This document shows positions 19,669 through 21,252 of a DNA stretch of 64,000 nt, piece after piece. Below the pieces are notes generated by a model. That model was not told the origin of the DNA. It ran no database searches and saw only the letters and a list, made by a program, of their open reading frames with translations. Source of the DNA: an uncultured Pelagibacteraceae bacterium. Its GTDB lineage: Bacteria > Pseudomonadota > Alphaproteobacteria > Pelagibacterales > Pelagibacteraceae. Location of the stretch: positions 73,052 through 137,051 of the forward strand of contig CACMAB010000001.1 of assembly GCA_902611635.1 (NCBI GenBank), given 5' to 3'. The position numbers and the translations under genes are program-made. The stretch's first letter is position 1. Every line of letters begins with the position of its first letter.

Positions 19669-20235
19669 ATGAATAATTATAATCTCGTAATTTATGAATT
19701 TGAAGAACTATATAAGATTTTAATTGAAATTAAAAAAGATATAAATCTTAACTTTGAAAAAGCAAATAAACAACAACTGCCTGATCTTAATTCTAAATCT
19801 AATTATTTAATATTTACTAAAAAGGAAATACCTGGGTTAGTTAATCAAATAGTTTTTAAAGACTTTCCTATATCAATTTTTAAACTACTAGAAAAAATTA
19901 ATATTCAGTTTATAAAAAAAAAATTTCACGATCAATCTGATATCACGATTGGCAATTATAGTTTTAATTTAAATTCACGTTTAATGTCTTTTGAAGAAAA
20001 TAAACTTAAACTTACAGAAAAAGAGATTAATTCAATAGTATATCTTTCTAAAATTGGGAAAGAAGTCAAGATACAAGAATTACAAGATAAAGTTTGGGGA
20101 TATCAATCTCAATTAGAAACTCATACAGTTGAAACACATATTTATCGCTTAAGAAAAAAAATTTTAAAAACTTTTGGTGATGGAAACTTTATAATTAGTA
20201 AGAAAAATGGTTATAAAATTAAAGAAGAAAAATAG
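19669..20235 (+). CDS. OmpR-type winged-helix regulator, CenR-like, with degenerate receiver domain
   Basis: LTEKE...VWGY...THTVETHIYRLRKKI C-terminal domain; short N-terminus without recognisable receiver acidic motifs. Confidence 0.75.
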   Translation: MNNYNLVIYEFEELYKILIEIKKDINLNFEKANKQQLPDLNSKSNYLIFTKKEIPGLVNQIVFKDFPISIFKLLEKINIQFIKKKFHDQSDITIGNYSFNLNSRLMSFEENKLKLTEKEINSIVYLSKIGKEVKIQELQDKVWGYQSQLETHTVETHIYRLRKKILKTFGDGNFIISKKNGYKIKEEK

Positions 20236-20326
20236 ATTTGCTAAAGATCTTTTTTCTAAGAAATATAAACCTAGAGTAATTAAACCTAAAAAAGGTAAAG
20301 GAAGTTTTAAAAGGATAAAGAATTAA
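20207..20326 (+). CDS. arfA: ArfA-like alternative ribosome-rescue peptide, 39 aa (not in ORF track)
   Basis: Manual translation MVIKLKKKNRFAKDLFSKKYKPRVIKPKKGKGSFKRIKN; contains the ArfA KKGKGS(Y/F)xR signature; fills the gap between two genes. Confidence 0.7.
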   Translation: MVIKLKKKNRFAKDLFSKKYKPRVIKPKKGKGSFKRIKN

Positions 20327-21252
20327 AGTCTTGCACCAATTTGTTGAATCACTTTAGATGATAATTTAGTTGCTTGTTCTAAACACCCTTTAGTTGGTAG
20401 ATTATTTATAAAACCATGTAGATAACCAGCTGCAAAAAGATCTCCAGCGCCTGTTAAATCTTTAATTTCAAGATTTTTATTTGCTTTTATTTCAGTAATT
20501 TCGTCTCCAATAATTGAAATTGCACCTTTTTCTCCACGAGTAATTACAATGTGTTTTTTTGTTTCTTTAGCAAAAGTAATGACTTCATCGAAATTTTTAG
20601 TATTGATTAATGCCATTATTTCACTTTCATTCGCAAAAGTTAAATCTAATTTTTTTTTTACTAAGTATAAAAAATTTTGTTTGTGTCTTTCTACACAAAA
20701 AAGATCTGATAACGACATCGCAACCTTTTTGGCATTGTTAATTGCTTTTTCAAATGTTTTTTTTGGTTCCCCTTCATCCCACAAATAACCTTCTAAAAAA
20801 ATTAATTCACTTTTTTTTATAATTTTATCATCCACATCACGCTCATTAATTTTTCCTGCTATACCTAAAAAAGTGCACATTGTCCTTTCAGAGTCTGGTG
20901 TAACTAAAATCAAACAAGTGCCTGTTGGAAGATTTTCTTTACTTTTTGAGTAAAAATACTCAACATTTTCCTTTTTAAGTCCTTCCTCATACTTAGCCCC
21001 AAAAATATCGTCAGATATTTTTCCTATAAATCCAACATTGTTTTTGAGTTGAGATAAGCCAACTATTGAGTTAGCAACTGAACCTCCTGAAATAGTTTTT
21101 TCAATTTTTAAAGATCCTAAGAGACTTTTGAATTCTATTTCATCAAAAAATAACTTCATTGTACCTTTTGTGAGATTGTTTTCTTTAATAAAATTTTCCT
21201 CAACTTTACAAATTACATCAACTATTGCGTTTCCAATACCAAGGACTTTCAT
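20323..21252 (-). CDS. PfkB-family kinase (adenosine/inosine kinase-like)
   Basis: GNAIVD, GGSVANS, ERTMCTFLG, DLTGAGDLFAAG. Confidence 0.9.
   Translation of the reverse strand: MKVLGIGNAIVDVICKVEENFIKENNLTKGTMKLFFDEIEFKSLLGSLKIEKTISGGSVANSIVGLSQLKNNVGFIGKISDDIFGAKYEEGLKKENVEYFYSKSKENLPTGTCLILVTPDSERTMCTFLGIAGKINERDVDDKIIKKSELIFLEGYLWDEGEPKKTFEKAINNAKKVAMSLSDLFCVERHKQNFLYLVKKKLDLTFANESEIMALINTKNFDEVITFAKETKKHIVITRGEKGAISIIGDEITEIKANKNLEIKDLTGAGDLFAAGYLHGFINNLPTKGCLEQATKLSSKVIQQIGARL

Follow-up and report, generated by a model that had tools for sequence, protein, structure and literature searches.

Does a frame of 39 codons, lodged between a regulator gene and a kinase gene of a SAR11 bacterium, encode the ribosome-rescue factor ArfA, and is this factor made in an already-short form that could lie outside the control of tmRNA? 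According to a review, ArfA occurs only in some beta- and gammaproteobacteria (PMC8012679), and a nucleotide-HMM survey of 2024 counted 0 arfA genes in 2327 Alphaproteobacteria (PMC11257542 Table 1). The SAR11 genes analyzed here and the long-tailed ArfA homologues of other alphaproteobacteria contrast with this published count of zero for the class. The frame is located in a stretch of 64,000 nt (the window) from an uncultured Pelagibacteraceae bacterium, in which a sequence-only reading had proposed an unannotated, minimal rescue factor of the ArfA type. The frame is indeed missing from the window's own annotation track; elsewhere, the label does not hold, as the NCBI name of a relative with 35 aa is 'alternative ribosome rescue factor ArfA [Candidatus Pelagibacter sp.]' and JGI names relatives 'alternative ribosome-rescue factor'. 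The exact protein of the window is also already present in a public protein collection. The gene is, hence, not categorically new, since annotation pipelines already call its relatives ArfA. Our literature search returned no paper on a natively short, stop-terminated ArfA, nor on the rescue activity of the short forms from SAR11 and phages.

The arfA locus and its neighbors

The features of the locus, in positions of the window, are the following.

20207-20326, + strand: arfA-like gene, 39 codons and a TAA stop, ATG start, with a match to Pfam PF03889
20225-20314, + strand: conserved core of arfA, residues K7-R36, from the alignment of 21 species and the HMM alignment to the PDB ArfA chains
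20288-20305, + strand: KKGKGS motif, residues 28-33, from the sequence (invariant columns), with a channel role known from E. coli (PMC5378476)
20306-20326, + strand: short basic tail FKRIKN and stop, ending at the equivalent of E. coli K44
19669-20235, + strand: upstream gene for a predicted atypical OmpR/PhoB-family regulator, 188 aa (Trans_reg_C, E 1.2e-10)
20323-21252, - strand: convergent gene for a PfkB-family sugar or nucleoside kinase, 309 aa (PF00294, E 6.8e-41)

The start of arfA is overlapped by the last 29 nt of the regulator gene, which ends at 20235, and its TAA stop, six codons past KGKGS, overlaps the stop of the convergent PfkB gene by 4 nt, so that a terminator could not fit between the two genes. 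The sequence-only reading had given this same frame, peptide, pair of overlaps, and stop position, and they agree with the ORF list and the sequence; the E. coli ArfA string that it quoted likewise matches the MG1655 gene. The PfkB kinase is the convergent neighbor in most orthologous arfA loci, and in nearly all loci the arfA stop and that of the convergent gene are a few to 15 nt apart (in L004, the gap is 144 nt). The regulator adjoins arfA in 31 of the 34 same-genus loci; two of the remaining three are cut by a contig end, and in the third our script detected no regulator. Across the 31 loci, the regulator stop lies between -53 and +29 nt relative to the arfA start, the commonest overlaps being 1, 4, 8, 20, or 29 nt. 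As the regulator directly precedes arfA and the abutment or overlap is conserved, co-transcription of the two genes is plausible, and the short overlaps fit a translational coupling of arfA to the regulator. No phage genes flank arfA among the ORFs of the window. In E. coli MG1655, arfA overlaps the convergent mscL by 4 nt (L123:2432-2650), as arfA and the PfkB gene do here, and this shared overlap is probably a coincidence.

By sequence, the regulator matched only the OmpR/PhoB winged helix (Trans_reg_C), with no match to a receiver domain. The full-length fold of its AF2 model (pLDDT 87.9) matches response regulators, among them atypical, orphan ones that are phosphorylation-independent. Its N-domain is receiver-like and shortened, and 26 orthologues share no invariant Asp. 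These features, taken from sequence and model, mark the protein as an atypical member of the OmpR/PhoB family; the earlier designation of an envelope regulator gained no support from a winged helix joined to a shortened receiver-like domain without an invariant Asp.

Conservation and selection of the arfA frame

Of 24 species genomes from the same genus, 20 keep the arfA frame open (58-90% identity), and in these 20 the start codon sits just ahead of a conserved KKN. Over the ungapped core of 30 codons from 21 species, the in-frame pN/pS was 0.26, and four of the five other frames gave values of 1.0-1.5; the remaining frame, which is antisense with shared third positions, gave 0.42. The most variable codon sites of the core are third positions. 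An alignment of 21 arfA orthologues served as a profile (A1) for the searches of genomes, PDB, protein clusters, and IMG/VR. Of 180 family genomes (≥85% complete), 137 have arfA by the A1 search, a count that takes in one unpublished genome, G099, on which no claim rests. Clear copies were found in six of the seven genera sampled (its own genus and five of six others), and genus g6 gave two marginal matches only, among five genomes. In a collection of 5.8 billion proteins, at least 7972 protein clusters match A1, mostly of 35-50 aa and from marine metagenomes.

The sequence-only reading had suggested conservation in relatives and an ArfA HMM as checks, and both turned out in its favor: 112 of the 151 genomes from the genus have the frame open, the window copy matches PF03889 (E 3.7e-5), and so do all 21 orthologues. 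Because the frame is kept open in the genus, its in-frame pN/pS is low, and its orthologues match ArfA, a chance lysine-rich frame is excluded, and the 39 codons are to be regarded, on this sequence evidence, as a real and conserved gene.

Membership in the ArfA family

The match of the window peptide to PF03889 scores 23.5 bits, slightly under the gathering cut-off of 25.5 bits; the 21 aligned orthologues all match at E≤0.01 (best 2.6e-8), some of them above the gathering score. When A1 was compared with all PDB chain sequences, six distinct sequences were matched, and all six are E. coli ArfA (E 3e-6 to 9e-6). Positions 4-36 of A1 align without a gap to K12-K44 of E. coli ArfA, and the core of the window peptide, K7-R36, aligns equally gap-free to K12-R41. 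A Pfam scan of the peptide at E≤10 returned no family other than ArfA, with no RF-1-type catalytic domain as in ArfB (YaeJ) and no similarity to ArfT or KGG-repeat helices; NCBIfam and PHROGs gave no match to the peptide. ArfT is a member of the KGG-repeat family (PMC6514570).

Across the 21 species, N9, L15, K28, K29, G30, G32, S33, and R36 are invariant, and the KKGKGS motif, invariant or nearly so, is followed by [FY]x R K K. With reference to E. coli ArfA, the residues kept are N14, L20, F25 (as Y/F), R28, V29, and KKGKGS[YF]xR, and those not kept are A18, replaced by a near-invariant Lys, L19, replaced by Asp/Glu, and L24, replaced by Lys. Residues 1-11 of E. coli ArfA, I11 included, have no counterpart in the SAR11 peptide. 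Lys/Arg makes up more of the tail in SAR11 ArfA than in E. coli. Away from the ribosome, ArfA has no ordered structure. In ribosome structures, the KGKGS segment of E. coli ArfA lies in the empty mRNA channel (PMC5378476). According to Demo et al. (2017), A18 packs on I11 and rRNA C1914, the residues L19, L24, and F25 contact Trp319 of RF2, and residues 2-16 become ordered only once RF2 opens (PMC5378476). E. coli ArfA is active when cut at N47 and inactive when cut after M40 (PMC5378476). The last residue of the window protein corresponds to K44, which falls between the two cut points. On these matches, the peptide is solidly placed within the ArfA family, of which it represents a genuine, pared-down form (34-43 aa). 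That its RF2-activation step would be the same as that of E. coli ArfA is less secure than the family membership, because the N-terminal minidomain is only partly kept.

Partner genes and the release step

An alpha-type two-piece tmRNA and SmpB are present in the genome of the window (alpha_tmRNA 224 bits; SmpB E 5.6e-57) and in four complete relatives. Each of these five genomes has exactly two ORFs with an RF-1 domain, both of RF1/RF2 size, and an ORF of ArfB size with this domain was found in none of the five. In the genome of the window, one of the two is RF2 (prfB, TIGR00020 462 bits) and the other is RF1. At 48% identity to the E. coli protein, SAR11 RF2 retains SPF, GGQ, and Trp319 of the switch loop (IGWG), the residue that ArfA contacts in E. 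coli (PMC5378476); SAR11 RF1 has Thr at the switch-loop position (IGTG). The SAR11 prfB gene (L134; G000 contig C2) also carries a programmed +1 frameshift site, CTT TGA, after an AGGAG element; near arfA, strong Shine-Dalgarno sites are otherwise scarce in this genome.

Conceivably, the peptide is an ArfA-derived ribosome-binding peptide with a different second step, which might use RF1 or RF2 as ArfT does, or occupy the channel without release. The truncated RF2-activating minidomain, with charged residues in place of A18, L19, and L24, would suit such a peptide, and the phage proteins in which the module is fused to unrelated domains suggest a portable ribosome-targeting unit. Against it, the equivalents of N14, L20, F25 (Y/F), R28, and V29 are kept, the alignment is gap-free over the mid-region that contacts RF2, the RF2 of SAR11 retains Trp319, and ArfA was the only family returned by the permissive Pfam scan. 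We consider a different second step quite unlikely, and an RF2-type rescue remains the preferred reading.

Short form, stop codon, and tmRNA control

In E. coli, arfA contains a long hairpin within the ORF, and RNase III cleavage or termination at this hairpin yields a non-stop mRNA (PMC3989581; PMC8012679). The ArfA made from this non-stop mRNA is tagged by tmRNA, and the rare full-length protein, which carries a hydrophobic tail, is unstable (PMC3989581; PMC8012679). In the SAR11 genes, a real stop is present in 36 of 36 loci (27 TAA, 7 TAG, and 2 TGA), placed 4-11 codons after KGKGS in the orthologues behind a basic tail, and the sequence alignment reveals no hydrophobic tail in the window peptide or its orthologues. 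From KGKGS onward, 120 nt of each of the 21 orthologues fold no better than shuffled sequences (z -2.0 to +1.1, mean -0.18), and the same segment of E. coli arfA, our positive control, folds into a long stem at -39.9 kcal/mol (z -3.3). The window arfA together with 94 nt downstream gave a fold z of -0.72 and no stable hairpin, and no terminator-like site was found at the gene. The sequence-only reading had inferred an ArfA-like factor in already-short form, without hydrophobic tail or hairpin, and this description is borne out by the contrast of z values, the Pfam match, the PDB profile match, and the stops at every locus.

The non-stop-mRNA device of the E. coli type is absent from SAR11 arfA. 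With a real stop, no hydrophobic tail, and no RNase III/terminator hairpin, SAR11 ArfA is probably not made from a non-stop mRNA; and since a real stop codon is present and a hairpin is not, an escape from tmRNA control is plausible. This feature concerns the regulation of the factor, and neither its fold nor its activity. ArfA-family matches above the Pfam cut-off occur in a few non-SAR11 alphaproteobacterial families (L124, L126, L128, L129, and L132). Such homologues were found in 7 of about 397 non-SAR11 genomes sampled, and they extend 18-62 aa past KGKGS, in some cases with hydrophobic residues. As the other alphaproteobacterial homologues keep long tails, the alignments indicate that the short form is a derived trait of the branch that comprises SAR11 and phages.

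Trans-translation could nevertheless still hold ArfA in check if the transcripts end or are trimmed within the last codons, whether by exonucleases, convergent transcription, or RNase E, and the resulting non-stop products are tagged. The 3' ends could fall inside the arfA ORF because there is no terminator and a convergent gene lies over the stop: no terminator-like site or stable hairpin guards the end of the gene, the convergent stop is within a few to 15 nt at nearly all loci, and a convergent overlap of 4 nt likewise exists between E. coli arfA and mscL. On the other hand, we found no conserved structure or cleavage signal, and the stop is present at all 36 loci, though a G+C content of 29% makes chance stops common. 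Francisella ArfT, with 40 aa and a real stop, has no such control (PMC6299226). We judge the trimming of arfA mRNA to be unlikely as the basis of its control, and favor expression from an ordinary, stop-terminated ORF.

Absence polymorphism at a fixed site

About one quarter of the same-genus genomes, many of them closed, are without arfA. Five such genomes were checked at the locus (G044, G045, G046, G048, and G053; L038-L042). In four closed genomes, the regulator and the PfkB kinase genes converge directly, and no ORF separates them; in G045, the site has different neighbors and likewise no arfA frame. A diverged, hidden copy of arfA was considered for these genomes and ruled out, as regulator and kinase abut in four of the five and G045 is frame-free. 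RF-1-domain genes were looked for in three of the four genomes with abutting regulator and kinase, and none of the three yielded an ArfB; tmRNA appears to be the sole known rescue system of these three. Because closed genomes exist without arfA and also without ArfB, the gene is dispensable, and it is polymorphic at a fixed site. In genomes without ArfB, this natural variation in arfA could be used to ask if streamlined cells get by on tmRNA alone.

That the gene is present in some genomes and missing from others at a single locus would also be in keeping with a phage-derived passenger without a host role, or with a lysine-rich frame that is spurious and owed to a high AT content. Purifying selection across 21 species and the constant place of arfA after one and the same regulator in the whole genus argue against both.

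ArfA modules in phages and a possible diverged relative

Scanning IMG/VR with A1 returned at least 153 viral loci with the ArfA core module. Many of the viral copies are equally short with real stops (e.g., L050, L071, L105, and L110), and others form part of fusion proteins (121-171 aa) that have additional domains at the N- or C-terminus. Examples of the fusions, within L043-L122, are L052:3893-4300, L082:3980-4405, and L102:3980-4492, and the conserved C-terminal region of the fused proteins (GNYTKP...GQWSARKAQ) had no match in Pfam. A search of phages had also been suggested by the sequence-only reading; the profile scan of IMG/VR succeeded, and the phage collection of GenBank, queried by tblastn with the peptide, gave no match, with low-complexity masking as the probable cause. 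One phage protein, gp30 of the pelagiphage HTVC027P, is named ArfA in a transcriptome study that reports only its expression timing and not its activity (PMC12753301).

The chromosomal neighbors, regulator and kinase, are absent at all 80 viral loci kept. An origin of the viral matches from mis-binned SAR11 fragments was ruled out by this absence (80 of 80) and by the phage genes of L110, a genuine phage contig with PHROG matches on seven of nine ORFs, endolysin included. This contig (IMGVR_UViG_3300044237_000020) carries at L110:4001-4093 a SAR11-type ArfA of 33 aa, the core of which is about 80% identical to that of the window, and the copy hints at an exchange of ArfA between host and phage.

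The abundance of viral contigs with the module, including the phage copy so close to the window's in its core, could again point to a phage-derived passenger. Yet the 80 viral loci lack the chromosomal neighbors, no phage genes flank the window copy, and the gap-free profile match to ArfA is beyond chance. By selection, the PDB profile match, and the fixed position, a passenger or spurious ORF is largely refuted, and we regard it as extremely improbable; a selected chromosomal arfA is the reading retained.

In a second SAR11 family, a short basic ORF encodes about 42 aa, counted from its ATG (L023:1468-1611 in G031; L024:1432-1614 in G030). The stop-to-stop frames are of 47 and 60 aa, with an ArfA-like N-half, NPIARELRTTKYKP, and a different basic tail in place of KGKGS. 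The matches are weak (E about 2e-4 to 6e-4), and these ORFs may be diverged relatives of ArfA.

Proposed mechanism and significance

In the mechanism that we propose, the KKGKGSF-K/R-rich tail would insert in the mRNA channel left empty when a ribosome has stalled on the 3' end of a truncated message, and the short N-terminal part (N-x-[IF]-A-K-[DE]-L-F ... Y-K-P-R-[VI]) would engage RF2. The engaged RF2 would then hydrolyse the peptidyl-tRNA without a stop codon. SAR11 arfA would be an ordinary ORF that is probably linked to the regulator by co-transcription or translational coupling. An ordinary ORF with a real stop behind a regulator gene makes a low, constitutive level of ArfA probable, so that the factor would act beside tmRNA-SmpB and not only when trans-translation fails.

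A minimal ArfA that performs RF2-type rescue and is expressed from an ordinary, stop-terminated ORF is, in our assessment, the probable explanation of this locus. The gene, its homology to ArfA, the selection on it, its partner genes, and the absence of the hairpin and of the hydrophobic tail are seen directly; we infer the RF2 dependence, the rescue activity, and the independence from tmRNA. More tentatively, SAR11 and many phages might share the use of a native ArfA of 35-40 residues, without the first 11 residues and without non-stop-mRNA control. Such a factor could be a constitutive parallel path of rescue and the smallest natural activator of RF2, and in phages it could possibly recycle ribosomes from degraded host mRNA; we find this wider proposal conceivable, yet open to considerable doubt.

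If the short form is active, about 30 conserved residues would constitute a minimal ArfA for sensing the empty mRNA channel and switching on RF2. The tmRNA-gated control through non-stop mRNA would, in that case, be an add-on and not an intrinsic trait of the family. SAR11 are the most abundant bacteria of the ocean, and arfA is present in about three quarters of the genomes of one SAR11 family and in many marine phages.

Comparison with known rescue systems

E. coli ArfA (YhdL; PF03889; 5MGP, 5U4I, 5MDV, 5H5U, and 7OJ0) resembles the SAR11 peptide without a gap over E. coli residues 12-44. As in E. coli, arfA of SAR11 coexists with tmRNA-SmpB and with an RF2 that keeps Trp319. The E. coli protein has 72 aa, whereas the SAR11 ORF encodes 34-43 aa; the former possesses residues 1-11 along with A18, L19, and L24, whereas the latter lacks the first eleven and has K, D/E, and K at the three positions. 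E. coli arfA has the RNase III/terminator hairpin and the hydrophobic tail, and SAR11 arfA has neither of them, ending instead in a real stop 4-11 codons past KGKGS.

The long-tailed ArfA of other alphaproteobacteria (L124, L126, L128, L129, and L132) shares with SAR11 the short N-terminus and the pattern [KR]NP[VI]A..L ... KGKGS[YF]. It differs in frames that run on for 18-62 residues beyond KGKGS, some of them hydrophobic as in the E. coli type. The ArfA of marine phages (HTVC027P gp30; IMG/VR L043-L122) has the same core module, and differs in being phage-encoded and, in some cases, fused.

Francisella ArfT (PMC6299226) works with RF1 or RF2, is placed outside PF03889, and has the tail KKGGSTNKK, whereas the SAR11 peptide matches ArfA only. 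Like the SAR11 peptide, ArfT is natively about 40 aa long, has a KGKGS-like basic tail and an ordinary stop, and is encoded with no terminator or RNase III site ahead of that stop (PMC6299226). The level of ArfT mRNA is unchanged in an ssrA mutant (PMC6299226). In essence, SAR11 arfA belongs with the E. coli factor by family, and ArfT is its closest regulatory parallel.
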